From UHGV virus genome UHGV-0212008: a stretch of 36,778 bases of DNA; one strand, given 5' to 3'. Below the pieces are notes generated by a model that was given only the letters and a program-made list of their open reading frames with translations, did not search any database and had not been told where the DNA came from. This DNA is from a virus. The translations under genes and the position numbers were made by a program. This document shows, one piece after another, positions 5,058 through 36,734 of this stretch. Numbering within the stretch: the stretch's first letter is position 1; the number at the start of each line of letters is the position of its first letter.

Positions 5058-5386
5058 AATTAGTGGAAATGAAGAAGCTTGATGATTTCGTTAAGTTTAA
5101 GAGACTTTTAAAGGAGTTTGTGAGGAATCCGAAATAGTATGACAGGATAGTCATACGAACTGATTTTGTAGGTGCTAAGCGTGGTTATTGCACTCGTAAG
5201 ATGTTTGATGGCAGTGAGGCTATCTGGGAACACTATAATGAGATATTGGAGACTATGACTTCGTTGTTGCTCACATACGATATTTCCGATTGTCTTGAGG
5301 GCGAATATATGACTGCGACTTGTTTCAATGATGACAGCGATGTCGACCATAAGAAAATTATTAGCGTGTTTTGTTTCAAGAATTAG
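5054..5386 (+). pseudogene. hypothetical gene interrupted by in-frame TAG at 5135-5137
   Basis: Frame reads LKEFVRNPK*YDRIVIRTD, aligning across the stop with LKELYKNPNHYKRIVINSD of the 4260 protein; continuous with ORF 5201..5386. Confidence 0.65.
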
Positions 5387-5412
5387 GGATACATAGGAGG
5401 ACACTAGGGATT

Positions 5413-6102
5413 ATGAGAATATGGAATTTGTTCGAGCAGAGCGGACATTTCAAGGATGTAGAGGCTGAGATGGGATATGATGGAATAGATGTCGATTGTG
5501 TGAAGACAGATCATACGGACTATGTGATGGACTTGCTTGCCGAGATGGACAAATGGGAGAAGGGCGAGGAATCGATATTTGATGAGATAAAGCAGGATGA
5601 TTTCGTGTTCAGCTTCTTTCCTTGCATAAGATTCGAAAATATGGCAGATATGCTGATTCAAGGACACAATTATCCAGACATATACAAGCCTATGGTAGAC
5701 CGCTTGGACATAAGTCGAGAGAGAGAGAGAGAGAGAAGTATGTGGTATGGATACTTTTGCCTCTTTTGCGAGATTATGCTGGTGAAAGGTGTGAGATGTG
5801 TGATAGAGAATCCGTATTTGACCACACACTATTTGACAAGATACTGTCCATTGAAAGCTGATTATTTCATTATGGATAGAAGCAAGTATGGAGACTATTT
5901 CAAGAAACCCACTCAGTTCTGGTTCTTGAACTGTGAGCCTAGGAATGGCTTGGTGGCTGTGAATTATGATAGCAAGCCAGTCAAGAAGATAATAAATGAG
6001 AGGGGCATAAATCGAAGTCTTATAAGCAAGGATTTCATAAGGGTGTTTCTTAGCGAGATAGTGGATTTGGAAGGGGAGGCAGTGAATAAGAAATATGAGT
6101 GA
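5413..6102 (+). CDS. putative DNA cytosine-5 methyltransferase-like protein
   Basis: Degenerate motif I (LFEQSG), catalytic FFPC, IENP (motif VI), KKPTQFW; contains a (GA)10 tract. Confidence 0.7.
   Translation: MRIWNLFEQSGHFKDVEAEMGYDGIDVDCVKTDHTDYVMDLLAEMDKWEKGEESIFDEIKQDDFVFSFFPCIRFENMADMLIQGHNYPDIYKPMVDRLDISRERERERSMWYGYFCLFCEIMLVKGVRCVIENPYLTTHYLTRYCPLKADYFIMDRSKYGDYFKKPTQFWFLNCEPRNGLVAVNYDSKPVKKIINERGINRSLISKDFIRVFLSEIVDLEGEAVNKKYE
5717..5736 (+). repeat. (GA)10 simple sequence repeat inside the methyltransferase
   Basis: Ten perfect GA units encoding RERERER. Confidence 0.95.
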
Positions 6103-7078
6103 CAGGTACGGACTGCCATATATGGGTAGCAAGTCGAAGATAGCGAAATGGGTTGTCGAGAGACTTCCTGAGGGCGATACATTGTACGATGTGTTCTGTG
6201 GCGGATGTGCGATAACGGACTATGCGATGAGGGCAAGGAAGTACAAAAGCTATGTGGTGAACGACATCACGAACATCGGATATGTGTTTAAGAAGGCACT
6301 GGATGGGGGATTCAAGAACGAGACAAGGTGGATAGACAGGAAGACATATTTCGAGAATCTTGAAGACCCATATGTGTATCTGTGCTTCTCGTTCGGGAAC
6401 AATCCAGTGTGCAGATATGCGTATGCTGTCGAGCTTGAGCCTTGGAAGAAGGCATTGCACTGGTGCTATGTGTTCAATGACCCAAGCTTGATGCACGAGT
6501 ATGGAGTCGATATCCCAGTATGCGATGACAAGGCAGGATACAGGAAGTGGATAAGGAACAACGAATCATACATAAGGGAGCGATATTGTGCGTGGGTGAA
6601 CGCACACAGGGATGAGATAGAGAACACGACAGGCTTGAGAATACGCCTTGAACGCTTGCAAAGCCTGGGGCATTTGCAGAAACTATAGCGGCTGAAAGAC
6701 AGTCTCCATATATTCCAAGGCGACTATAGGGATGTCGTGATTCCCAAATCCAGTGGTGTGGTGTATTGCGACCCTCCATATCGTAATACGAGGCAGTATT
6801 ACGATATGGAGGGTGGGGAGAAGCGAGACCTTACCAAGACATTCGACTATGATGGATTCTATGCTTGGTGTGAGTGGCAATCATACGAGAACAAGAATCA
6901 AGTGTTCGTGTCATCGTACGATTTGCCAAGCGACAAGTTCCGCCGAGTAGCATCCGTGGACAAGGGCTCTAACTTGCACGGAGGTGCAAATTATTACGAT
7001 GACAAGATAGAGGGCTTGTATGTGCCTAAGGAGCAGGCGTGCGATCTGGTGGATTATGTGCAGGTCAAGTTGTTCTAA
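6095..7078 (+). pseudogene. Dam/D12-class DNA adenine methyltransferase interrupted by in-frame TAG at 6686-6688
   Basis: LPYMGSK and DVFCGG (SAM binding) lie before the stop; GDYRDV and YCDPPY (catalytic) lie after it in the same frame. Confidence 0.8.
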
Positions 7079-9695: not shown

Positions 9696-9753
9696 GGTGT
9701 TTTACAAAAATGTTGTATAATAAAAATCACTAAGAAACGAGGATACAGTTCAA

Positions 9754-10371
9754 ATGTTTATTAAAAACTTAGAAATCAAGAAGGAAGAGCCGACAGCCGA
9801 GGAGAAAGTCGAGACACCGAAGACCGATGAGAATGCCGACAAGGGCGGTTCTGTGGAACAGCAGGATGTCAAGCCCGAGCAAACCGCCGAGAAATCAGCA
9901 GCCGAGGAGAAATCCACACAAGCCGAGAAGACCATAGCCGAAAAGGCAACAGCCGAGAAGACTTTCACACAAGCCGAGCTTGACAGCATAATCCAAAGCC
10001 GATTGGGCAAGGTATATGCCAAGCTTGGTGCGAAGAATGCGGATGAGTTCGAGCAGAAGCTGAACGAGTCCAATTCGAAGCTTGCGGAGACCGAGACCAA
10101 GCTGAAGCAAATCGAGAGGGATACAGCTCTCAAGGACAACCATATCAATCCAGATCGTGTTAAGGATGTCGACATATGGTTCAAGGGAACTGGCACGGAG
10201 TTCAGTGCATCGGCATTGACCGAGGCTGTCAAGACACATCCCGAATGGGTTTCCAAGGTAGTTGTTCCCGAGGTGGGTTCGCATACAAGCGGAACTGCCG
10301 AGGCAGATTCGAGAAGAGACAATGAGAGTAGAATAGCCGAGGCATTGGGATATTCCAAGCTGGTAGGCTAA
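9754..10371 (+). CDS. capsid scaffolding protein
   Basis: Acidic low-complexity N-terminus, KTFTQAELDSIIQSRL motif, coiled coil; precedes major capsid gene. Confidence 0.85.
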   Translation: MFIKNLEIKKEEPTAEEKVETPKTDENADKGGSVEQQDVKPEQTAEKSAAEEKSTQAEKTIAEKATAEKTFTQAELDSIIQSRLGKVYAKLGAKNADEFEQKLNESNSKLAETETKLKQIERDTALKDNHINPDRVKDVDIWFKGTGTEFSASALTEAVKTHPEWVSKVVVPEVGSHTSGTAEADSRRDNESRIAEALGYSKLVG

Positions 10372-10407
10372 GTAGTATGTTCATCTTTAGGGGGATATAG
10401 ATAGATT

Positions 10408-11670
10408 ATGAACATTTCAAATGAGACCATCAAGCTATATCAGAAAGCATTGGACACAGTGTTCGTACACGAATCCAAGACCGATATCTTGAGAGAGTAT
10501 GCGCCTGCTGCATATGCAACAATCGAGCCAGATTTCAACAGAGCAGGAGTCATCAAGTTGCCTAAGGGTTCCTCAGGCGGACTTGCAAACTACAAGGCGG
10601 TAAACCAATCCACACCTGCAGCCGACTATGTACATTACCAGACAACTGGCGGTGATGGATACAAGAGAAACGATGCCAAGCTCGAGTTCGAGGAATTCAA
10701 CCTACAGTGCAACCGTGGTGTCGAGTTCCAAATCGACCGTGTAGAAGGAAAGAAAATCGATGATTTGCTTTTGACCTATGTCGTATCACAGTTCCCTCGT
10801 GAATCAGTCGTACCCGAGGTCGATGCATTCCGTTTCGCATATCTTGCATCCCGTGCCAACTTGTCCTATGGAAACTTGGTCACCGAGACACCTACCGCCG
10901 ATGGCGGAGACCAAGACATCTTCACATTGCTCAGCAATGCCCTTGCCAAGCTCTTCGATATGGGCGTACCCGAGGAGAAACAAGTCATCTTCGTGAATCC
11001 CGAGATTCACAACTTGCTTGTCAATTCCGCCAAGATTACTCGTTATTTGGGAGTCTCCGAAATCGACTATGGTGGACTCAAGGTCAAGATTGAGACATTC
11101 CTTGGAAGACCTTTGATTAAAGTTCCTTCAAGTCGTTTCTTCAACAAGATTACACTTACCGACAACGGGTACGCACCTGCCGATGGAGCAAAGTCCATCA
11201 ACTATATGGTAGTATCCGCCGACACCACATTGATTTTCGACATCTTGGGCAGAATGCATGTCTATGATTCCGACAGTGTACATCTCGGATTCGATGGATG
11301 GGCAGTAGACTACCACCTCTATCACGGAATCTATGTACCCGACAACAAAGTCCCTGGAGTCTTCGTATCATTGGGTACAACCTTGAAGGCATCCTCAGCT
11401 GGCAGATTGTTCGTTGCCACCAAGGCTGGTTCTGCAACTGGAACAACCGCAGTCGAGTCCTTCTTGACCTTGCCTGGAAACTTGCTTGTGACCCAGATCG
11501 GATTCGATACTGCTGACCACAACTATGGTGTCAAGCTTTCTAGCGACAAGATTAAGCCTATCGGCGATGATATTCCTGTGACTGGAAGCACCTTGAGATT
11601 CTTCGGATGCGATTCCAACGGATTGATTATCGCCAAGACCGATGGTGCAGTAGCTGTCAACAAGAAGTAG
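10408..11670 (+). CDS. major capsid protein with probable C-terminal extra domain
   Basis: IKLPK..GLANY, RGVEFQIDRV, VVPEVDAFRFAYLA, YHGIYVPDNK motifs; follows scaffold; strong terminator downstream. Confidence 0.88.
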   Translation: MNISNETIKLYQKALDTVFVHESKTDILREYAPAAYATIEPDFNRAGVIKLPKGSSGGLANYKAVNQSTPAADYVHYQTTGGDGYKRNDAKLEFEEFNLQCNRGVEFQIDRVEGKKIDDLLLTYVVSQFPRESVVPEVDAFRFAYLASRANLSYGNLVTETPTADGGDQDIFTLLSNALAKLFDMGVPEEKQVIFVNPEIHNLLVNSAKITRYLGVSEIDYGGLKVKIETFLGRPLIKVPSSRFFNKITLTDNGYAPADGAKSINYMVVSADTTLIFDILGRMHVYDSDSVHLGFDGWAVDYHLYHGIYVPDNKVPGVFVSLGTTLKASSAGRLFVATKAGSATGTTAVESFLTLPGNLLVTQIGFDTADHNYGVKLSSDKIKPIGDDIPVTGSTLRFFGCDSNGLIIAKTDGAVAVNKK

Positions 11671-11723
11671 TATAATTAGAGCGTTGGATATTCAGTGTCC
11701 TAGTATCCAACTTACCTAATTTG

Positions 11724-11760
11724 TGCCTTGTGTGCAAAAAGCACAAGGCATTTTTATTTT
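11724..11760 (+). terminator. intrinsic terminator after major capsid gene
   Basis: TGCCTTGTG...CACAAGGCA followed by T run; extra hairpin GTTGGATA/TATCCAAC at 11683-11711. Confidence 0.8.
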
Positions 11761-11799
11761 GCAAAAATCTCTTGACTAATTTTATAAAAGTAGTATATT
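11757..11799 (+). promoter_or_regulatory. sigma-A-like promoter with twin boxes
   Basis: TTGACT(11772)-16-TATATT(11794); TTTTGCAAAA at 11757 and TTTTATAAAA at 11780. Confidence 0.7.
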
Positions 11800-11805
11800 A
11801 GTGTG

Positions 11806-11870
11806 CGTGGGGATAAAACCTCAAAATGTGCAAGTCCATACTTTTTGTGGTGAGAAGTATGGATTTTTTT
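11806..11870 (+). ncRNA. putative ~65-nt small RNA
   Basis: ORF-free unit between the promoter at 11772-11799 and terminator AAGTCCATACTT/AAGTATGGATTT plus T run. Confidence 0.5.
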
Positions 11871-11892
11871 ATTTGTTAGTGGTAATATAGAG

Positions 11893-12118
11893 CAGTGAGG
11901 TATCACTCCTTTCTTTTAATACGATTTTCATAAAGTAAACGATAGATATTCTTGCAGAGTCATTTTACTCCTTTAAAGCAGATGGATGCCTTTCTGATAC
12001 CTCCTACACGATATGCCATACTTTTCTTGATAATTGATAAAAGTCTTCTTCCGAGTGGCATATGCATGTAAAAAATCCCTAGTCAAGCCCCTTATAACAA
12101 GAAATAAGGGGCTTTTTT
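11893..12118 (+). ncRNA. putative structured RNA with multiple anti-Shine-Dalgarno segments
   Basis: Stems GAGGTATCA/TGATACCTC and ATATGCCA/TGGCATAT; CTCCTTT tracts in the loop; terminator AAGCCCCTTAT/ATAAGGGGCTT. Confidence 0.55.
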
Positions 12119-12156
12119 GTCTTATAATAATTTCATACATACGGAGGATTAGAAAG

Positions 12157-12729
12157 ATGGCTGAAGACATAAAAACATTTGGCGGAGCTGAGAACGAGAT
12201 AGATGACAGGACAGCATATACAGTCAAGGGAGCTGATGCCACATTCATAAAGAAGACCGACATCAAGACTCCGAACGGAATGGACTTGAACCGACTTCTC
12301 GTATCGCCCGAGGAGTTTCAGCAGTACACTGGCATAAACCTCGTGTTCCGTTTGGTCGAGGAGAATATGGTCGATGGAGACTCTCATGCAGCAGCACAGG
12401 CGTTCATAGAGCGTATCCAGAGAAGACTCAACAACTACATAGACACGCATTTCTCAGGTGGCATAGGGAAGTTCTATTCCAAGCCCTCGGACAACCAGAG
12501 ATACCACTACAAGCTTGCCGTGATAGAGCAAGTACTCTACATATTCAGCAATACTGCGATAACCGAGAGTATGGGCTTGAACGATGATGGATACCCGATA
12601 TTGAGCAAGAACGACATAAGACAGCGTGAGATAGGCATAGAGTGCCAGCGTGAGCTTGAGCTTGCTGGACTGTGGACTAGAAGTCTCAATTCTGGAATGG
12701 GGTTCTATTCGTTCTGGTGGAGGTTCTAG
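12157..12729 (+). CDS. probable head-tail adaptor/connector protein
   Basis: First gene after major capsid; YKLAVIEQVLYI...ELELAGLW resembles SPP1 gp15-like adaptors; GGAGG RBS. Confidence 0.6.
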   Translation: MAEDIKTFGGAENEIDDRTAYTVKGADATFIKKTDIKTPNGMDLNRLLVSPEEFQQYTGINLVFRLVEENMVDGDSHAAAQAFIERIQRRLNNYIDTHFSGGIGKFYSKPSDNQRYHYKLAVIEQVLYIFSNTAITESMGLNDDGYPILSKNDIRQREIGIECQRELELAGLWTRSLNSGMGFYSFWWRF

Positions 12730-12732
12730 CCT

Positions 12733-13101
12733 ATGGATTTGAGACAAAACTACAACTCATACAATGAGCTTTTCGAGGTTCATAAGCAGGACAAGAAAAA
12801 CTCGAGGGGTGCAAGGCTGAAATGGAACAAGGAAGCCGATTCCTATATCAAGGCGAAGATATACAGGAGTGTCGAGTCCGAACCCGATATGGTGGATGGA
12901 ACATTTCAGACAGTGCTTCATACCCTTGTGATAAAGACACCCGACAGAACCGATGTCGAGATAAACGACAAGATGATTCAGTCATCCACTGGGATGACAT
13001 ATATCGTTGTGTCTATTTCCCAAGATTTGGCTAAGAGCAAGTTCAAGGGAAGATATGACAAGTTGAGGACTTGCGACACATACATAACGCTTAGAGGCTA
13101 A
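12733..13101 (+). CDS. probable head closure (stopper) protein
   Basis: Size, beta-rich pattern (VEINDKM...YIVVSIS) and synteny. Confidence 0.5.
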   Translation: MDLRQNYNSYNELFEVHKQDKKNSRGARLKWNKEADSYIKAKIYRSVESEPDMVDGTFQTVLHTLVIKTPDRTDVEINDKMIQSSTGMTYIVVSISQDLAKSKFKGRYDKLRTCDTYITLRG

Positions 13102-13106
13102 TCATT

Positions 13107-13706
13107 ATGGCTAAGGAATCTAAGACATACACCGAGGGAAACTTCAGCACAAGCTATGGCGAGAAGTACAAGGGCGGATACCAGGATGTGTCGATAAGCT
13201 ATGGCGATGGTGGGTACACCTCTGGGAAGTTCAAGGTAGACAAGGAAGTACTCGTAAAGAGGCACTATTCGAAGGCTTGGGCTAAGTTCGGATTTCCACC
13301 GCTGAACGAGCTTGCAAGCGAGATAGCCGACACGATGAGGAAGAGATTCACGATGGCACACGACAATTCGTACATAGGGAAGTCGATAGTCGCCAAGGGT
13401 CAGACAATACAGATCTCCGCACCGAAGTATAACATGATTGGATTCCTCAAGGGCGATGAGCTGAAGTTTGACAGCTCGAAGTCCTACGCATCCGAGCTTG
13501 ATGAGATAGGAAGCGTGATAGCGGTGAAGAGGCAGAGACAGCGCAAGAGCAAAGCCACTGGCAAGTACACTGGATATGGCGAGGAGATAGCCTGCAGGGT
13601 ATATGTAGGCAATTGGAAAGGCTATGTGGACAAGTTCATCGTTGATGGTGTTGTAGAGTGGGCTGTGGAACACAAGTTGCATATAGAGAATCTGACAGCC
13701 AGATAG
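13107..13706 (+). CDS. hypothetical virion morphogenesis protein
   Basis: Basic protein in the neck/tail-completion position. Confidence 0.5.
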   Translation: MAKESKTYTEGNFSTSYGEKYKGGYQDVSISYGDGGYTSGKFKVDKEVLVKRHYSKAWAKFGFPPLNELASEIADTMRKRFTMAHDNSYIGKSIVAKGQTIQISAPKYNMIGFLKGDELKFDSSKSYASELDEIGSVIAVKRQRQRKSKATGKYTGYGEEIACRVYVGNWKGYVDKFIVDGVVEWAVEHKLHIENLTAR

Positions 13707-13719
13707 GAGGATTTGGATT

Positions 13720-14508
13720 ATGGCATATGAGAACGAGACAATGGGGCTGATATTCACATGGGTGAAGGATGTGGCTTACAGGATGCATCCAGAGCTTAGT
13801 GTCGAGGTATTCGATGAGCGTGCGTTTGCCGATGCTACAAGCGATGAGGATGACAACAAGATATTCCTATCCGTGCATTTCAAGTCGAGCAACACGGATA
13901 CGAAATCCACAGTGCTTGAGGCATCCATAAGCTTGCTTTCGGAGAAGGATGACTTCACCAAGGCATTGGAAATCATCCGTATGGTAGTCAGCGAGCATAT
14001 GCTCAAGCCTTTGAGCATAGGCGGATATTCCGTGTTCAGCACCCCTTATCTATCAGAGAAGTTCGTAAGTCACGAGGACTCGTACAGAGCCGAGATTTCA
14101 ACCGAGGCATCGTTCGTAATCTCGCCTGGCATAAGCAATCTTGCTGTGAATGCCGATGGCGAGGATTTGTTCGTGTTGCAGTCCTCGGTGGGCTTGGCTG
14201 GAAGCAACGATCCCGTGGTATTGGGTACTACAGGCACATCAAAGTCAAGAATCGCATACTATACGAAGACATTGTCTATGAAGCTCTATGCCGATATGAC
14301 CTCCACATTCGTACGCAAATGTTTCGATGTATGGAACTTTCCGACAAACAATCCTGCTGTCGATGGTGTGTTCAATATGTTAATCGACTATGGCAGTGGC
14401 GTGAAAGCAAGAAAGAAGATGGTGCTTTCCCAATTGGTTCAGCAGTCCTCGATAGGAGCTGTGTCCACTGTCGAGTTGTCGTTCCTGGAGGCTGATGAAG
14501 ATGTCTAG
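13720..14508 (+). CDS. putative tail completion / tail structural protein
   Basis: Synteny; AGGAGG RBS; appears two-domain. Confidence 0.45.
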   Translation: MAYENETMGLIFTWVKDVAYRMHPELSVEVFDERAFADATSDEDDNKIFLSVHFKSSNTDTKSTVLEASISLLSEKDDFTKALEIIRMVVSEHMLKPLSIGGYSVFSTPYLSEKFVSHEDSYRAEISTEASFVISPGISNLAVNADGEDLFVLQSSVGLAGSNDPVVLGTTGTSKSRIAYYTKTLSMKLYADMTSTFVRKCFDVWNFPTNNPAVDGVFNMLIDYGSGVKARKKMVLSQLVQQSSIGAVSTVELSFLEADEDV

Positions 14509-15076
14509 CAAAGAGGTAAGGGTATCCATAACTGGAAAGGTCGTGGAGGTCGAGAAATCGTTCAAGTACACCTCCATAAGCAACAAAATCATCCAGCCCG
14601 AGAAACCAGAAGCCAAGCCATCCGAGCAGGTGGAGAGCATAGAGGCTATGGAGGGAAACGATGGTTCACCTCTTGGGGCGTTGCAGAGACTCGTGGCTAG
14701 CAATGGTTCTGGAAACAACTCCGCAAGCATAGTCAAGAGCTTGGTGGAGGAAGGTGTGAAGGAGTGTGACTACTGGCTTAACCGCACATTGCAGGCTACG
14801 GACAACTACCAAGGGCAGAGAACGATAGCCATAGCCAAGAGCCTTGGTTCTTGGACACAATCCACTGGAATGAAAATCATCAACGGATTTGCCACTGGCG
14901 GTCCTGTCGGTGGCATCATTGCGACAGCGATGGCTGTGGTGGACACTGGCTTGAGCATATACAAGAACTACAACGAGGAGCAGTTCAAGATAGAAGTCCA
15001 GAACACCGAACTCGATATGACTCGTGTGAGAGCTGGATATTCGCTCACGAGTGGCTCTATAGGAGGAGACAAGTAA
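14501..15076 (+). CDS. putative short tape-measure / DNA-pilot-like protein
   Basis: Helical; Gly/Ala-rich hydrophobic segment GGPVGGIIATAMAVVDTGLSIY; precedes the large tail gene. Confidence 0.4.
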   Translation: MSSKEVRVSITGKVVEVEKSFKYTSISNKIIQPEKPEAKPSEQVESIEAMEGNDGSPLGALQRLVASNGSGNNSASIVKSLVEEGVKECDYWLNRTLQATDNYQGQRTIAIAKSLGSWTQSTGMKIINGFATGGPVGGIIATAMAVVDTGLSIYKNYNEEQFKIEVQNTELDMTRVRAGYSLTSGSIGGDK

Positions 15077-18000
15077 ATGAGTGCAATAGACTACAATGTA
15101 ATCAAGATAGCGTTCGAGAAAGCACGATTCGCCAAGTACGAGTGTGTCTTGAATGTCCCGTACAGCGATGAGTACAGCGAGACCTTGGACTCAATGAGCG
15201 TGGTTATAAAGCATATCGATTTCAAGCTTGACATAAACCCCTTCGATGTCGTGTATATCTATCGTGGAGTTGCCATAGGTGGCACTATCCAACATCCTAC
15301 ATACACCGATATAAAGTGGAGGGAGATGCTCGTGGACAGCGTGAGCATGCTCAGAAAACGCTATGGGAACAACACATACTACGAGTACACTCTCAAGCTT
15401 ATGAGCGAGACCAAATGGCTTGAGAAAATCCAGCTTCCAAACAGGAGCTTTACTCACGCACTCGGCGGCGAATTGCGAGATGCGTACGAGACCATAAAGG
15501 ATTTGATGACATATGTCCCCAAGGTGATACGAGACAACAAGGAAACCCCCTTGATAACCATTTCCGAGGCTGTCGAGGGGAGATTCCTAAATCACGGCAT
15601 GAAGGATATGTCCTTGAGCAAACCTACGCTCAGACAGGCACTTACTGCTGTGATGAGCCAGTTCGGATGCATTCCAGTGGTAAACAACAAGCAGTTGGGA
15701 TTCATCGATTTCAACAGATCGCAAGGGAATATCACGGAAGAGCAAATAAAGAATATGGACAGCGAGTCCTATTCGAACTCATCGGACAGCTATGTGAACA
15801 CGCTCATGACCGATGCATCCCAGGTGCTTGGCGATGACAAGTATCTTGTTGTCGAGCGTGGAGTCGGATTCAGAGACAGGGATACTGGCTTGATTAAGCA
15901 ACAGGAGAATCTCAAGTTGCTTACCACATATCCGATATACAAGGTGAAGAACCTCACGATAAATATGAATCTCAGCACATATCCGACCATCATCGTGAAG
16001 GTGTACAACATAGCCGATGCGGACTATTTCATACTGCCTTCCTCGAATCCAGAGGGGGATTTCAATCCAGTCCATATATACGACAATAGTACAAGCGAGT
16101 ATGTTGTAAAGGTCTATTGTGGCGGTCATCAGATGATAGATTTCAGCAATTGGGAGTTCAAGATTCTTGAAGTAATCAATCCATCCACAGATGGTTTTGC
16201 GTGCGAGGGATTCAAGACATCATCCGTAAAGATAGGCATATCGAAGCCTGCCCAAAGTCAATGGGCAGGCGGAACCATGTATACATTCAGCATTCCCAAG
16301 AGCGGAATGGTCAGACCCGATGGCACAGTCGCATATCTCTTCATCGCAAACATAAGCGGTGAGGACAAGCATATCGTGTGGAACACATATGTTGAGGATA
16401 ATGGAAACGATACAGTCATATCTGGAATGTACAAGGAAATGGATATAGGCATCGTGTACAGGAAGGTCAGCGTGGACATAACCAGTCTCGTGAAGACCGC
16501 ACAGGAGAGGAAGCTTCTCTCGTATGACTACACCACCAATGAGTTCAAGAACGGGCAAGGCAACATGGCTGTGTATTCGAAGTACTACTACACCACTGTG
16601 CAGTACAAGCTCGGAAGCAACGAGATAAGCGGATGGAGCGACACATACACGAAAGCTCAAGGGTGGTGGGGTGAGAACAAGACCACCATAGAGAACATAG
16701 TCAATAAGTCATTTTACGAGAATGAATTCCTCGACAAGCGTTATGACAACATCTTCAGCGAGGAGGACATACTTCCGTATCCATCTTGGTTCTATTCGTA
16801 TCAATATGTAGATGGAAATGGCAACAAGCATCCAGTGGCAGTCAAGAGCATATTCAGCAGAGGATGGGTTGATGATATGTTCGGAAGCTACAACTATCCA
16901 TCGAGAATCAGCTTCGACATCTCGTATCAACCACTCAGCGATCTGAACATTGCGACAGTGAAGAGCGGTTTCGACTATCCGTTGGCACAGCTCGACAGCA
17001 GAGACAACGGACTTGTGGATTTTGGCAATTTCAAGAAAGTGGAGCAGGACAAGCTGGACAGACTCGGAAACGGAGTCCATATCCTTTCCAAGCGATATTT
17101 TGCCAAGAATGACACAATAGACCTTGAGAGCGAACTCATACCATTGGGAGCTGTCTATGTGGATACTGGCGAGGTCGTGTTTAAGCGTACCATATCGTTC
17201 AAGAACAACTATATCGACATAGCCTACTATCTATGCAAGGACTATGTGATAGCGAACTACAGCACATCCATAACAACGAAATATCGTGCTTATCAGTATG
17301 TCGACTACTCAAGCTCCACTTTCAGAAACGAGAACAGGATTTCCTATTTCACGATAAGCGAGATGGATAATTCGAAAGTCGATTACAAGGAAAATGATGT
17401 CCTAGGTGTTGTCGAGAAGTATTGGGGCGGTGTCGCTACAATGGGCGACAACAATCTCGATTATCTATGCTCGGGAATGATATTCGCTCCGTTCCTATAC
17501 AACAACAATGTGAGAAGCATGAATATGGGATATAGGAGAGTCAAGAGTACCGCATACTCGAACGACAATCCAATAGTCAGCTATTCCGTGTTTCAGCAAG
17601 CTACGAACCACTATGTGTATGATTATGGGCTTGTGGTAAGCTTCAAGTACTGGGATACTGTCAGCCCTGGAATAATGCTCGAGTCCAATGTTAGAGCCAC
17701 TGGACTTCCACAGCATCCGTATATGTACGATGACAAGTCGAGCATAGTCAAGTATGCGAAAGAGCAGGACATAGGACTCATGGCTGTTCCAAACGACAAC
17801 GGATGGACTTCCCAAGCTGAATCATCGGTTGAGTATGCACAGATATATCCTGCAATCGATGACAATGAGATATGTACTAACAGCTTGATAAACATAGCCT
17901 ATATGAGCTTCGACATTTCGGACATAGTCCAAGACCAGAGCGAGCTTATGGGCTTCACGATGCAAGTCGAATACAGATCGCTCACGAACAATGTCGTTGT

Positions 18001-18286
18001 GTTCAAGGACATATCCAAGGTTGCAAGGATATTCAACGATGATGAGAACCCCTCGTACACTTATCGTGGAGGGTTCTGTGGCACATATGGCGAAGCCAGT
18101 GCATACACAGGTCCAGTACTAAGATATGGCGATGTACTCAGTGCTTTCGACAACAAGATAATCGTGAAGAGCGATGTCACCATATACTATGGAGACACTC
18201 CGCTGATTTCCATGAGAAAAGGCACTTATTATGTAAGGCTAAGCAAGTATAATAAGAAAGTAAATATAATACATATAGGAGGATGA
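15077..18286 (+). CDS. large tail/baseplate hub protein (1069 aa)
   Basis: Size and position; TLRQALTAVMSQFGCIPVV resembles hub-domain segments. Confidence 0.6.
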   Translation: MSAIDYNVIKIAFEKARFAKYECVLNVPYSDEYSETLDSMSVVIKHIDFKLDINPFDVVYIYRGVAIGGTIQHPTYTDIKWREMLVDSVSMLRKRYGNNTYYEYTLKLMSETKWLEKIQLPNRSFTHALGGELRDAYETIKDLMTYVPKVIRDNKETPLITISEAVEGRFLNHGMKDMSLSKPTLRQALTAVMSQFGCIPVVNNKQLGFIDFNRSQGNITEEQIKNMDSESYSNSSDSYVNTLMTDASQVLGDDKYLVVERGVGFRDRDTGLIKQQENLKLLTTYPIYKVKNLTINMNLSTYPTIIVKVYNIADADYFILPSSNPEGDFNPVHIYDNSTSEYVVKVYCGGHQMIDFSNWEFKILEVINPSTDGFACEGFKTSSVKIGISKPAQSQWAGGTMYTFSIPKSGMVRPDGTVAYLFIANISGEDKHIVWNTYVEDNGNDTVISGMYKEMDIGIVYRKVSVDITSLVKTAQERKLLSYDYTTNEFKNGQGNMAVYSKYYYTTVQYKLGSNEISGWSDTYTKAQGWWGENKTTIENIVNKSFYENEFLDKRYDNIFSEEDILPYPSWFYSYQYVDGNGNKHPVAVKSIFSRGWVDDMFGSYNYPSRISFDISYQPLSDLNIATVKSGFDYPLAQLDSRDNGLVDFGNFKKVEQDKLDRLGNGVHILSKRYFAKNDTIDLESELIPLGAVYVDTGEVVFKRTISFKNNYIDIAYYLCKDYVIANYSTSITTKYRAYQYVDYSSSTFRNENRISYFTISEMDNSKVDYKENDVLGVVEKYWGGVATMGDNNLDYLCSGMIFAPFLYNNNVRSMNMGYRRVKSTAYSNDNPIVSYSVFQQATNHYVYDYGLVVSFKYWDTVSPGIMLESNVRATGLPQHPYMYDDKSSIVKYAKEQDIGLMAVPNDNGWTSQAESSVEYAQIYPAIDDNEICTNSLINIAYMSFDISDIVQDQSELMGFTMQVEYRSLTNNVVVFKDISKVARIFNDDENPSYTYRGGFCGTYGEASAYTGPVLRYGDVLSAFDNKIIVKSDVTIYYGDTPLISMRKGTYYVRLSKYNKKVNIIHIGG

Positions 18287-18290
18287 ATAT

Positions 18291-18836
18291 ATGGCTAGTT
18301 ATGTTTATTATGACAAGTCTGGCATAATCCGTGAGCTGATAACAGCCGACTATCCTGCAAGGCAGGGAATGGCATATGACATATTCATGTATTTCGATGG
18401 CGTGGATTCCACACCTGGCAAATACAATGTTACTTGTAGGAAACCAGACAAGGAGACAGGACTTCTTACCACATTGTCTTGGGAAGATGCTACAGTCCCG
18501 TACTCCGCCGAGAGAAAGCTCTCGAACTTCGAGTACTATAGAACATATCATATGTTGCATATAAAGGTCTCGAGCTTGGATAAGGGCGGTCTATGGCAAT
18601 TCACACCGAACATCGATGACAAGGCAGGTGCGTTGTTCAATCTCTTCGTTGACAGCAACACGAACGAGGTTGTGGACAAGGCTTTGAGCTTTGCGGACTA
18701 TCAAAGCCTCATGGACAAGCTTACCGAGCTTGAATCCAAGATTGACAGTCTCGAGGCGGTCTCGACTGCAAGCAACGATGCACAGGCATTGGACATCACC
18801 GAGGAAAACGGAGTGGTGTCGATAAAGAGGACTTGA
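18291..18836 (+). CDS. putative baseplate upper (BppU-like) protein
   Basis: Beta-rich N-terminus with CRKPD, then short coiled coil; synteny. Confidence 0.4.
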   Translation: MASYVYYDKSGIIRELITADYPARQGMAYDIFMYFDGVDSTPGKYNVTCRKPDKETGLLTTLSWEDATVPYSAERKLSNFEYYRTYHMLHIKVSSLDKGGLWQFTPNIDDKAGALFNLFVDSNTNEVVDKALSFADYQSLMDKLTELESKIDSLEAVSTASNDAQALDITEENGVVSIKRT

Positions 18837-21273: not shown

Positions 21274-21705
21274 ATGAGCTACAGAGACTGGTCTTATGTC
21301 GCTTATGCTGTAATTTGTATCTTGGCTGTCACCGCTTCCGTGATTATCAAGATTTGCGAGAGCAAGTTTGGTAAGGAAAAGGTTGCGGAGACTCTTACCG
21401 AGGCTGACAAGTATAGAAAAGCCATCACCGAGGCAATCACTTCCGCCGAGGAGATGTTCCCTGGTGTTGGCACTGGAAAGCAGAAGAAGGTAGTTGCCAC
21501 TCTTGCTGTTTCCAATGCTGTCAACGCTCTTAAGAACTACAAACCTACAGCTGAGCAAATCTCGAGCGATATCGATACTGCGGTTGCGATTACCAAGGAG
21601 GTAAACACTGGCTATGCCAGCAACTCCAAAAGTGTTGCAAGGATTGCTGAGGTCAAGCTTGAGACAGCTAACGATGCAGATCCTAAAAATGCATCCTTGA
21701 AATAA
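21274..21705 (+). CDS. holin, LL-H-like
   Basis: Single N-terminal TM helix, AITSAEEMFPGVGTGKQKK and IDTAV motifs. Confidence 0.7.
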   Translation: MSYRDWSYVAYAVICILAVTASVIIKICESKFGKEKVAETLTEADKYRKAITEAITSAEEMFPGVGTGKQKKVVATLAVSNAVNALKNYKPTAEQISSDIDTAVAITKEVNTGYASNSKSVARIAEVKLETANDADPKNASLK

Positions 21706-23625: not shown

Positions 23626-23668
23626 TTTTATAAAATCGTGTTGATTTATTTTATAAAAAATGTATAAT
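23626..23668 (+). promoter_or_regulatory. sigma-A-like promoter with twin TTTTATAAAA boxes
   Basis: TTGATT(23641)-16-TATAAT(23663); boxes at 23626 and 23649. Confidence 0.75.
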
Positions 23669-27460: not shown

Positions 27461-27489
27461 AAAAGGACTAGCGTGATGCTAGTCCTTTT
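27461..27489. terminator. bidirectional terminator between convergent genes
   Basis: AAAAGGACTAGC-gtgat-GCTAGTCCTTTT. Confidence 0.8.
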
Positions 27490-27805
27490 CTATTATCGCC
27501 ATAGCCTCATCGACAGTGTACGCTGTTCCAACTCGATAGCCGAGCGATCTGAGAAGTTCCTGCCTCTGAAGCTGAATCTTTGTGGGTTTCCTAGGATGTA
27601 TCTTCGTTTCTACAAAACACGCTTTTCCATCGTTCCTCAGCACCATAAGGTCTGGAAATCCCTCTGGGATTCCGCTGTCCATATATCTGTCGTTTCCGTT
27701 GGGGTCTATAAGCACACCTTTGAACACATTCATACGGATTACGACATATCCACGCTTGGAGCATTCCAAACGGACTTGATTCATCAGCTTATGCTCTGGT
27801 GTCAT
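27479..27805 (-). CDS. VRR-NUC domain nuclease (putative junction resolvase)
   Basis: GIPEGFPDLMV...FVETK...PTKIQ PD-(D/E)xK VRR-NUC motif. Confidence 0.9.
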   Translation of the reverse strand: MTPEHKLMNQVRLECSKRGYVVIRMNVFKGVLIDPNGNDRYMDSGIPEGFPDLMVLRNDGKACFVETKIHPRKPTKIQLQRQELLRSLGYRVGTAYTVDEAMAIIEKD

Positions 27806-28110
27806 TTGATTTCGTTCTTTTCCTTTCTACGCTTGGCAAGATTCACGCATCTTGCAAGATTGTTTATCTCGTGTTGCAAGTTATCGGAGAGCTTGACCTT
27901 CGTTCCCTCCACCTTCACAGGAAAGAGCTTGTTTGATTTGGTCTCGATATAGTACTTCCCATCTCTGTACATGAACAGCTTTCCATCGAGATGGAGATAC
28001 CCCCTATCCTTGATTTCCTCCGCTGTCTCCTTTGATATAATCCATCTGTGATACGATGCGTTCTTGTTTAGGAAATAGCTGTCCTTCATTGCATCCCAAT
28101 CATTTTTCAT
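27802..28110 (-). CDS. hypothetical protein
   Basis: GAGGT RBS on minus strand; ATGA overlap with VRR-NUC gene. Confidence 0.7.
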   Translation of the reverse strand: MKNDWDAMKDSYFLNKNASYHRWIISKETAEEIKDRGYLHLDGKLFMYRDGKYYIETKSNKLFPVKVEGTKVKLSDNLQHEINNLARCVNLAKRRKEKNEIK

Positions 28111-34204: not shown

Positions 34205-34303
34205 TGATGCTTTCAGGCATCAGAGTCATAGCATATCCAGGATTTTCTAGATTCCTGGATAGCTTCCTTTCGGCGGAGTTCCTTCCACGGAACTCCGTTT
34301 TTT
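34205..34303 (+). ncRNA. putative ~100-nt three-hairpin small RNA
   Basis: Promoter TTGCTT(34171)-17-TAAAAT(34194); stems TGATGC/GCATCA and ATCCAGGA/TCCTGGAT; terminator CGGAGTTCC/GGAACTCCG plus T run. Confidence 0.55.
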
Positions 34304-34709
34304 GTTTTCGAAATATCCCCCCCTCAAAACAAGCGATTCTAGGCACATAATTCCATTTAGGCATATTTATACCTCTCGGATAATCTCGTGGCTAAAACAA
34401 GGCGAAAATCAACGATTATGGGCTGTTTAGGATAATCACGGACAACAACTTCAGGTATTTCAAAATCCGCACCCCACTTTTTCATACCCCCCCAGATGTC
34501 AACAACTGCCAGAGATGGATATTTTATTGTCGTGATGTACTGTCTTCATCGAATATACGCATACGATGAATTTCATTTTTCCGCCTATGTGCGATTTTGG
34601 GGCTGAAATATCGCCAAAATTAGGTTTTCCGAAAACTGATAGGGACTTTTTGGCGATCTGTAAAACCTTACATATTTTGGAAAATGTAAGAAACAAAAAA
34701 ATAAAATAA

Positions 34710-34752
34710 TTTTGTAAAAAACGCTTGACTTTTTTCCAAATAATGAGACAAT
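34710..34752 (+). promoter_or_regulatory. sigma-A-like promoter with twin boxes
   Basis: TTGACT(34725)-16-GACAAT(34747) with extended TG; TTTTGTAAAA at 34710, degenerate box at 34732. Confidence 0.55.
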
Positions 34753-34817
34753 TAGGACGCTTGAAAGGACAAGCTTAAAGGATGTAAAAAGCACCCAGAA
34801 AAGAAAGAGGCATATTT

Positions 34818-35060
34818 ATGGAAAAAACCACATTAAAGAAGATTATTAAAGCAGTTAGAGATTTAGAGGTAAAAGAGAGCAAAAATGATTCGCAATTCGA
34901 GTTTTACCAGAAGAAAAAAAGAAGAATAGAATACAAAGAGAGGAGAATGTTAACAGAATTGAGTAATTATTGGGATGAAATCAGCGATTACAATGAAGAG
35001 CGTAAAAAGTTAACGATAAATCAAGACAATTATAAATATATGTACATGAAACAGGATTAA
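34818..35060 (+). CDS. hypothetical protein
   Basis: AGAGG RBS; charged helical protein. Confidence 0.65.
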   Translation: MEKTTLKKIIKAVRDLEVKESKNDSQFEFYQKKKRRIEYKERRMLTELSNYWDEISDYNEERKKLTINQDNYKYMYMKQD

Positions 35061-35065
35061 AAATC

Positions 35066-35260
35066 ATGAATAAAGAAATTATAATCAGCATCACGAAGAA
35101 CGGCATTACCTCAAAGCTAGGAATGTACGAAAACTATTACGAGAACATGATAACTCAGTTAATGAATAACAACTATTGTTATTTGTGGCAAGCTGAGACC
35201 GATACACTTCTGATGCTTAATCGCCACACAGGCGACAAGATAGAATTTAAAATCTTATAA
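35066..35260 (+). CDS. hypothetical protein
   Basis: AGGA RBS; followed by hairpin AAGCCATGA/TCACGGCTT. Confidence 0.6.
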   Translation: MNKEIIISITKNGITSKLGMYENYYENMITQLMNNNYCYLWQAETDTLLMLNRHTGDKIEFKIL

Positions 35261-35313
35261 AATTAAGCCATGATATTTCACGGCTTTTATTAAAAAAATT
35301 AGGGGGCTAAAAT

Positions 35314-36687
35314 ATGAATCTAGTTTTAAGAAATTATCAAAATATAATTATAAACAGCTGTAGAGATGCCTTTAAAAACGGATATAAAAAACTCTGCTGC
35401 GTCTTGCCATGTGGAGCAGGAAAAACCGCTATTTTTTGCTATTTGGCATATCTCAATACGATTAAAAAGCCAGACAACAGAGTACTTATTTTGCTACATC
35501 GTAAAGAGCTGTTAAAACAAACTGAAGACGCTTTTAAAAGCTTTCAAATAAATACAGATCATATTGTTATAGCGATGATTCAAAGTTTTAAAAACACGCT
35601 TAAAACGGAGCTAAAACCTTATTCTTTAATAATAATAGATGAATGCCATCATGCCACATCTAACAGCTTTAAAGCGGTCTTAACCACCTATGGAAAAACC
35701 TCCTTAGTAGGATTTACCGCCACCCCTGCCCGACTAGATGGTAAACCCCTCGGCGCCATATTCGACCGATTAATAATTGGTGTAGATTATTCCTATTTAA
35801 TCCAGAATAAATACTTAGTCGATTACGATTATTATTCCCCCGACCTCAATTTTGATTTTTCAAAATGGAAATTAAAAAGCGGCGATTTCGACATGGTCGA
35901 CAACGCTTTACATCTTGACAAAAAAGCTATTTACGGGGATATTCTCAAATATATCGACCTTAGCAAAAAAACGATTATTTATTCTCCTACTGTCGATTAT
36001 TCGAAAAAACTAGAAGCACAGATCAACGAACATTTTAACGCCAGAATATCCGCTGAATTCAACGGCATGACCCCCCAAAATGAACGGAATCGAATTATAG
36101 ATGATTTTAAAAACGGAAAAATAAAAATCCTTATCAATGTCGACTTAATCGGAGAAGGTTTTAATGTTCCCAGCTGTGATTGCGTATTTCTTCTTCGTGC
36201 CACACAATCATTAACGCTATTTATTCAACAGTCAGGAAGAGCCTTACGAGCAGACCCAAGCAACCCCAGCAAAAGAGCTTCAATCTTCGATTTTGTCGGC
36301 AATATTTACCGCTTTGGCTTTCCAGATGCCCCCCGTGCCTGGAGCCTCTCCAGCACGATAAAAAACACGCATAAACACGAGACAGTACACGATTCATTAT
36401 TAATTAAGACATGCCCCCAATGCCTCCGATCTTTCACACCTGCCCAGATGCTGCCTAATCGGTTATGCCCGTTTTGTAATGCCCCCCTCCCGCTAAATGT
36501 CCGAGAAATCCAGATTCAGCAAAAAAAGGAACTGGCTCTTATTAAAAAATCCCAATTAATCGAGAATCGGCGCCAGTGTGGACACTGTCGGAGCTTCCAG
36601 CAATTAAAAAAACTAGGTGAGGAAAAAGGCTACGCACATCCTGCCCAGTGGGCATATTATGTCTTAAAAAATCGAAAACAAATATAA
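35314..36687 (+). CDS. superfamily 2 (DEAD/DEAH-like) helicase with zinc ribbon
   Basis: LRNYQ, PCGAGKT, IIDECHH, GFTATP, GEGFNVP, QQSGRALR, CPQC...CPFC. Confidence 0.93.
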   Translation: MNLVLRNYQNIIINSCRDAFKNGYKKLCCVLPCGAGKTAIFCYLAYLNTIKKPDNRVLILLHRKELLKQTEDAFKSFQINTDHIVIAMIQSFKNTLKTELKPYSLIIIDECHHATSNSFKAVLTTYGKTSLVGFTATPARLDGKPLGAIFDRLIIGVDYSYLIQNKYLVDYDYYSPDLNFDFSKWKLKSGDFDMVDNALHLDKKAIYGDILKYIDLSKKTIIYSPTVDYSKKLEAQINEHFNARISAEFNGMTPQNERNRIIDDFKNGKIKILINVDLIGEGFNVPSCDCVFLLRATQSLTLFIQQSGRALRADPSNPSKRASIFDFVGNIYRFGFPDAPRAWSLSSTIKNTHKHETVHDSLLIKTCPQCLRSFTPAQMLPNRLCPFCNAPLPLNVREIQIQQKKELALIKKSQLIENRRQCGHCRSFQQLKKLGEEKGYAHPAQWAYYVLKNRKQI

Positions 36688-36691
36688 AATT

Positions 36692-36734
36692 TTTTATAAA
36701 AACCCCTTGCTTTTTTTACAAAAACAACTATAAT
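36692..36734 (+). promoter_or_regulatory. sigma-A-like promoter with twin boxes, reading across the window junction
   Basis: TTGCTT(36707)-16-TATAAT(36729); TTTTATAAAA at 36692 and TTTTACAAAA at 36714. Confidence 0.75.

Follow-up and report, generated by a model that had tools for sequence, protein, structure and literature searches.

The c4 antisense RNA of phages P1 and P7 is structured and its loops pair around the ribosome-binding site of the phage's own ant mRNA, as outlined in PMC12197685. The same account describes PreS and VpdS, trans-acting phage small RNAs that promote replication through their effects on host mRNAs; both are Hfq-dependent, belong to Gram-negative hosts and are presented there without variable loops (PMC12197685). 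CU-rich anti-Shine-Dalgarno (anti-SD) small RNAs are known from low-GC Gram-positive bacteria, and the relevant passages of PMC4132741 name LhrC, RNAIII, RsaE, SprD and FsrA. The cuckoo RNAs of Alphaproteobacteria are summarised in PMC4615179 as two to four hairpins with fixed CCUCCUCCC loops and variable stems, and the Racr RNA anti-CRISPRs, as summarised in PMC10651486, are small phage RNAs directed against host immunity, which mimic CRISPR repeats and bind Cas proteins. The phage RNAs covered in the corresponding part of the review have either fixed seeds or targets among the phage's own genes (PMC12197685).

The locus described here was found in a viral genome of 36,778 nucleotides, the whole of which is referred to as the window. 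A 225-nt small RNA is predicted on the plus strand at 11894-12118, its ends being inferred from the sequence, and consists of stem P1 with loop L1, stem P2 with loop L2, a linker and a terminator. Like c4, it would be a phage-encoded structured RNA with loops predicted to pair around a ribosome-binding site, and its loop alleles differ, as the specificity of c4 differs between related phages; unlike c4, the phage itself showed neither a target nor an antirepressor, and the c4 family model was not among the Rfam matches. Several pyrimidine tracts in G-poor loops that are predicted to cover an SD recall LhrC. However, the motifs of LhrC are short and redundant, whereas here one hypervariable loop spans an AUG and about nine codons, and the loops of the window contain no UCCC motif. 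Adjacent stem-loops displaying anti-SD-like loops are shared with the cuckoo RNAs, but here the stems are fixed and the loops (23-76 nt) are variable and lack CCUCCUCCC.

With respect to Racr, the element matched no Rfam repeat family. A type I toxin-antitoxin pair carries a conserved small hydrophobic toxin ORF on the opposite strand; the length and frame of the opposite-strand ORF here differed among alleles. A promoter and terminator of its own and the lack of a conserved ORF, all as predicted, are the features of a trans-acting antisense small RNA. Rfam gave no matches in the window, the best local score being 22.4 bits against a threshold of 90, and no published description of such an RNA was returned by a keyword search of mostly open-access literature. 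The candidate RNA is regarded as real and apparently uncatalogued, with a fixed scaffold and fast-evolving loops.

The phage and the gap behind its capsid gene

The window represents a tailed, gut-type phage of ∼37 kb with a terminase, portal, major head protein, Sak4-like protein, primase and helicase, and the complete-class genomes of two close relatives measure 35.3 and 36.4 kb. Its cluster has some 200-340 members, and relatives at 50-70% occur in Logan. The nearest named relatives of the terminase and helicase belong mostly to Bacillota phages, at 22-37% identity. Two DNA methyltransferase genes lie between the terminase and portal genes (5371-7078), the adenine methyltransferase being apparently split (6095-6688 and 6737-7078). 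Two small minus-strand genes at 27479-28110, one of them endonuclease- or resolvase-like, oppose all the others, and a long non-coding stretch ahead of the terminase genes (480-1500), with short repeats and a strong strand skew, is possibly an origin or packaging region.

A holin-like gene (21274-21705) matched Pfam Holin_LLH with a score under the cut-off, and no endolysin was recognised in the ORFs scanned (27 and 31, in overlapping sets). A holin-like gene without a recognisable endolysin is a hint that the host may be wall-less, with the Bacilli-derived orders RF39, RFN20 and Acholeplasmatales as candidates; MurB was present in 161 of 161 and 5 of 5 genomes of the groups tried for a wall-less lineage. 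In the search for a host, a relative of the gene downstream of the element was absent from the GTDB collection, and the capsid profile gave distant matches only (best 177 bits, two genomes left unscored); these came from 5 genomes among the 301 around an Oceanobacillus genome and from 43 among the 399 around a Christensenellaceae genome.

The element occupies part of a 486-nt gap between the end of the major capsid gene (10408-11670, plus strand; PHROG 422 major head protein, E 7.5e-42) and a 190-aa gene (12157-12729, plus strand) that by its position likely encodes a head-tail connector. The 190-aa protein matched no PHROG or Pfam entry and has 10 homologues with 49-97% identity. On the plus strand the gap contains, in order, the capsid terminator, promoter P1, a unit of ∼65 nt, promoter P2, the element, its terminator and the motif TTATAATA. 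The capsid terminator (11723-11751, plus strand) has an 11-bp stem and a T-run, its loop being altered and its stem kept in relative L044, and it would insulate the RNA cassette.

Promoter P1 is a predicted sigma-A-type host promoter (TTGACT-16-TATATT; 11772-11799, plus strand) and was the sole promoter-like match returned by a scan of 10500-13500, a result that is weak alone because shuffled sequences averaged 5.1 matches, above the real sequence. It resembles matches at 23641, 28147 and 36707, and was identical in 9 of the 12 sequences compared, variant in L006 and disrupted in L007 and L045. Promoter P2 (11860-11888, plus strand) was spotted by eye and was not returned by the scan; it combines a weak -35 with a TG extension and the -10 box TAATAT (11880-11888), and would place the RNA start at ∼11894-11895, three bases 5' of the first stem. 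Its GGTAA.AT was invariant in nine aligned sequences, which differed only in the fourth base of the hexamer, where variation is tolerated. It is these conserved key positions, rather than the scan, that argue for the predicted promoters, and together with the terminators that flank the unit they point to a predicted antisense RNA.

Between the two promoters a short RNA of ∼65 nt is predicted (11805-11870, plus strand), with a hairpin and U-run end that is terminator-like (11832-11866). It showed zero differences among five genomes and is predicted to be a separate small RNA or a leader. An attenuator fold for this RNA was not favoured among the predicted structures, and an 11-nt complementarity between 11852-11862 and 12016-12026 was discarded as it is lost in L004, L042, L007 and L044. 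L007 and L045 lack the 65-nt unit, promoter P1 and the TG of promoter P2. In this strain, which is represented by two near-identical assemblies (L007/L009 and L045), an early helicase module of ∼2 kb is inverted and separates promoter P1 from the -10 box of promoter P2, with the 65-nt unit removed; the window equivalents are 11795-11881 and about 34240-36700, and the word GGGGGGATAT is located at both ends of the inverted module. The inversion is either a real rearrangement or an assembly error.

An intrinsic terminator after the second stem, as originally proposed, was confirmed by terminator prediction at 12085-12118 (plus strand). In L004 it carries one compensatory change (C-G to U-A), and its loop varies freely among relatives. 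In some relatives (L006, L007) the loop at 12096-12103 is replaced by its reverse complement, as expected of hairpin-loop inversion. TTATAATA follows at 12122-12129 (plus strand), ahead of the next operon, and also precedes the terminase, portal, holin and 21771 genes. Five of its seven plus-strand copies precede late genes, with none on the minus strand; the late-gene sites (1500, 7136, 12122, 21240 and 21756) have no -35 match, and two of them are directly behind a terminator. TTATAATA is likely the late-promoter motif of the phage. The promoter matches of the small RNA are of host type, unlike the motif before late genes, and for this reason the RNA is expected to be made early.

Fixed stems and hypervariable loops

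Relatives with the downstream protein at 96-98% identity comprised seven viral and four metagenome contigs, and the element was detected in all 11, with one copy per genome. L007 and L045 are 99.98% identical, so that at most eleven independent sequences are available, the window included. A covariance model detected no homologue beyond this close clade (48 sources, 357 kb), and the capsid-downstream gaps of seven distant prophages contained no such unit.

The 5' arm of stem P1 (11897-11909, plus strand) has 9 bp and a 4-bp extension and is partnered by 11984-11987 and 11995-12003, leaving a 7-nt bulge at 11988-11994. All nine core pairs were without variation, and the 3' arm with its pyrimidine bulge (11984-12003) contains an invariant CCTTTC. 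The stem encloses the hypervariable loop L1 (11910-11983). Stem P2, with 16 pairs, and the hypervariable loop L2 (12020-12053), in which TTCTTCC was kept in 12 of 12 sequences, occupy 12004-12070. Both stems named in the original prediction (11897-11905/11995-12003, 9 bp, and 12011-12018/12056-12063) were thus found, the second extending to 12004-12019/12054-12070, as were all the loop words that it quoted.

In stem P2, 97% of cells were paired, with three pairs varying on one side and one on both. Across nine aligned sequences the consensus fold was paired in 98% of 358 cells, compared with 34-60% in slid controls; covariation was not above the shuffle control (189/500), two-sided changes being too few. 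The transcript 11894-12118 folded with a z of -2.61, and 1 of 200 shuffles was as stable (terminator included), while the wider segment 11880-12130 reached only -1.43. Several pairs of stem P2 alternate between G-C, G-U and A-U, and as the minus strand would mismatch at these positions this favours the plus strand. Total energy does not: in 8 of the 12 sequences the minus strand folds at least as well.

The good folding of the minus strand would also fit a short-peptide message on that strand, with the plus-strand RNA as a cis-antisense partner or by-product. The window has a good SD and ATG there, leading into an ATGA-coupled pair of 11 and 20 aa, and an ORF ending in DTSL(L/P)YIT is present in 11 of 12 sequences. 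These 11- and 20-aa peptides, which the original prediction had named as evidence against itself, were not conserved: the first minus-strand ORF is 11 aa in eight sequences, 26 in two, 15 in one and 37 in one, and the frames differ. The GGAG-to-ATG gap of 2-5 nt argues against translation of the minus strand, and L044 has no GGAG. No minus-strand promoter or terminator was predicted at the element, the coding sequence of the shared end overlaps both the conserved stem and the -10 box, and no membrane-length hydrophobic stretch was read from the sequence. A minus-strand product is considered highly improbable. A real plus-strand RNA is considered quite probable. The prediction of a structured RNA on this strand is supported, as is that of stems that are fixed while the loops vary. 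A 156-nt contig of run X2, which is probably DNA, lies wholly inside the allele-B RNA and ends in the terminator; this is a single contig and was left out of the evidence. A 36-nt AT-rich match in X1/X4 had unrelated flanks and was taken as chance.

The comparison of stems and loops among relatives, proposed with the original prediction, gave mean pairwise identities of 0.95 for the stems and 0.98 for the linker, against 0.76 for L1 (minimum 0.53) and 0.74 for L2. The neighbouring gene has 0.96 overall and 0.91 at third codon positions. L005 and L004 agree in 98% of the neighbouring gene, whereas in the loops their agreement falls to 55% and 64%. Twelve sequences contain six distinct versions of L1, falling into three main allele types, and seven of L2; the alleles of the two loops occur in mixed combinations, L1 allele B being found with two L2 types. 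Among 862 segments spanning 9700-18300 in five genomes, L1 was the second-highest divergence peak (0.43, against a median of 0.055) and L2 was near the 95th percentile (0.21). The other top peaks were a 1069-aa tail-region gene and the scaffold gene. This loop variation could reflect relaxed constraint and recombination.

Unconstrained loops would be expected of a structural or packaging-related non-coding RNA, or of a mere insulator. The location in the head module, the freely varying terminator loop and the blank target searches described below are in keeping with such a role. However, the promoter matches are host-type and not the late motif, and the loops outpace third codon positions in divergence yet keep a start-like complement, and we regard a structural role as very unlikely.

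The start-like complement of loop L1 and the search for a partner

The segment 11935-11974 (plus strand) is complementary to an SD (11968-11974), an AUG (11961-11963) and about nine codons, and is likely, on complementarity, to be the pairing region. Its reverse complement was confirmed to be a start region reading MTLQEYL. Several antisense start segments had been claimed; one is complete and the others are only pyrimidine tracts. In the 5' tract the order is reversed, with the anti-SD on the 5' side of the CAU, and this CAU is missing from L044. The ACCTCCT noted at the 3' arm is present in the window but is specific to it, 11 of 11 relatives having ACCTCTT.

One complete anti-(SD + AUG) segment was found in L1 of 11 of the 12 sequences and was weakened in L044. 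Reverse-complemented L1 was scored for an SD and ATG with a 9-nt anti-SD probe in six sequences, the feature having first been picked by eye; 0 of 300 dinucleotide shuffles reached the score of the window, four relatives gave P of 0-0.007, and L044 gave 0.02. In reverse complement each of the three L1 allele types is start-like (MTLQEYL, MTIQELI and MTLLQEY), and AGTCATT, corresponding to the anti-AUG and the next codon, is invariant. Loop L2 was not start-like, with no SD + ATG score in five of six sequences and P 0.26 in L044. In the predicted ensemble the unpaired fraction of the anti-start segment is only about one half (0.36-0.58). L2 of L004 and L042 repeats a 10-nt word found in L1 at 11935-11944, and the two changes that distinguish allele B from this word (A to G and C to U) keep one target paired through G-U; they are also compatible with a local hairpin.

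The gap from GGAG to ATG in the L1 complement is 2-5 nt, which is short for a real start. A real start would need to bulge its spacer when paired, which speaks against the loops being exact copies of starts in the host. The claim that the loops were copied from host gene starts is unsupported so far, given this gap and the lack of any near-exact source in the searches. Extended SD pairing is documented in Staphylococcus aureus, as reported in PMC13009471.

The RNA may instead be a generic anti-SD RNA, the pyrimidine tracts of which would resemble the 3' tail of the 16S RNA and bind many starts loosely, or a decoy for a tract-recognising protein, the rest of the loops being free to drift. The invariant loop positions are mostly such tracts (TCCTTT, CCTTTC, TTCTTCC), the loops are G-poor (0.04-0.18), and LhrC is described in PMC4132741 as having three redundant CU-rich sites. 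Furthermore, GAAAGGA precedes the start of several early/middle phage genes (23679-29560), GGAGG being usual in the late structural genes listed. Against this, AGTCATT is also invariant, in each of the three alleles the CAU is placed next to the anti-SD as in a start region, and the longest matches of L1 in its own genome, at 10-13 nt, were equal to those of shuffles (P 0.10-0.90). A generic anti-SD function is therefore given some weight but is considered unlikely.

The original prediction had reported no matching gene start in the phage itself, and this was borne out. L1 gave nothing beyond shuffles, no start in the genomes of the window and G009 paired better than shuffles, and words from the alleles did not recur at phage starts. 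L2 of G008 paired with an internal site in the primase gene at -32.4, the best of eight shuffles giving -25.6, in this one allele only. A single site appeared to covary with the RNA, in the capsid gene at 11385-11393, and was rejected: L001 has the capsid variant with no change in the RNA, and L044 breaks the pairing.

These results bear on a c4-like immunity or exclusion RNA, the loops of which would pair with a message of the phage itself, a competitor phage or a resident mobile element, with the alleles as exclusion groups. c4 of P1 and P7 blocks the ant mRNA at its ribosome-binding site through its loops and underlies heteroimmunity, according to PMC12197685, and discrete, reassorting alleles would fit such a role. 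However, the sole candidate for covariation within the phage's own messages failed in further relatives, the primase site of G008 is internal and limited to one allele, and a pattern of three blocks identified no start region in unrelated viral contigs (4 of 10 matches being unrelated). An exclusion RNA is considered quite unlikely.

In viral stretches an SD followed by MT[ILM]QE gave 57 matches, 50 of them unrelated and located at diverse genes without extended pairing. The best duplex among these 50 starts was -41.3, compared with -68 to -82 for matches of the phage's own clade. A reversed pattern, used as the single control, matched 16, which indicates that these codons are a common natural gene start. 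The best viral start for allele B (L112, -39.4) is that of a DHHA1-like fragment and was set aside as background. The consensus target MT[LI]QEYRL gave nine matches in viruses, none convincing, and 31 in the GTDB collection with no convincing start (best duplex -37.7 kcal/mol); the latter scan used the reconstructed consensus, the exact complements of alleles A and B lying outside it. An SD with a five-codon pattern was absent from 401 Bacillota genomes, and BLAST of the RNA against phages and plasmids returned chance-level pieces only (E 0.1-6). The blanks among bacteria carry little weight, since no host was found and the groups searched seem to lack wall-less lineages.

Proposed action on host messages

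Loop 1 mirrors a bacterial translation start, from which it follows that the RNA likely blocks a host message. The preferred reading, to which we assign a probability of roughly one half, is an early plus-strand small RNA with its own transcription, the first loop of which pairs with a host mRNA start and blocks translation. That the RNA would act as an antisense to a start region of the host is a plausible proposal. The host polymerase would make the RNA early in infection, and the stems would hold the loops open and protect the RNA ends. By pairing, L1 would then cover the SD, the start codon and the codons that follow in the host message, such that initiation would be blocked, with loop 2 as a second, shorter pairing site. 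Loop turnover would follow target differences between host strains.

A more far-reaching form of this reading, which is unlikely, is a naturally reprogrammable silencer encoded by the phage. Two exchangeable loops would act as guides on a fixed scaffold of two stems; the RNA would be made right after infection and would stop translation of host-strain-specific genes, for example defence genes, the loops being swapped and edited as hosts change. Such an RNA could be adapted for knock-down in Bacillota as a compact scaffold that needs no protein. With a known host, the series of alleles would offer a ready covariation test able to identify the gene that is silenced, which may be a new defence gene. 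Pairing loops that diversify faster than synonymous sites would show an arms race at the level of RNA between a common gut-type phage and its host.
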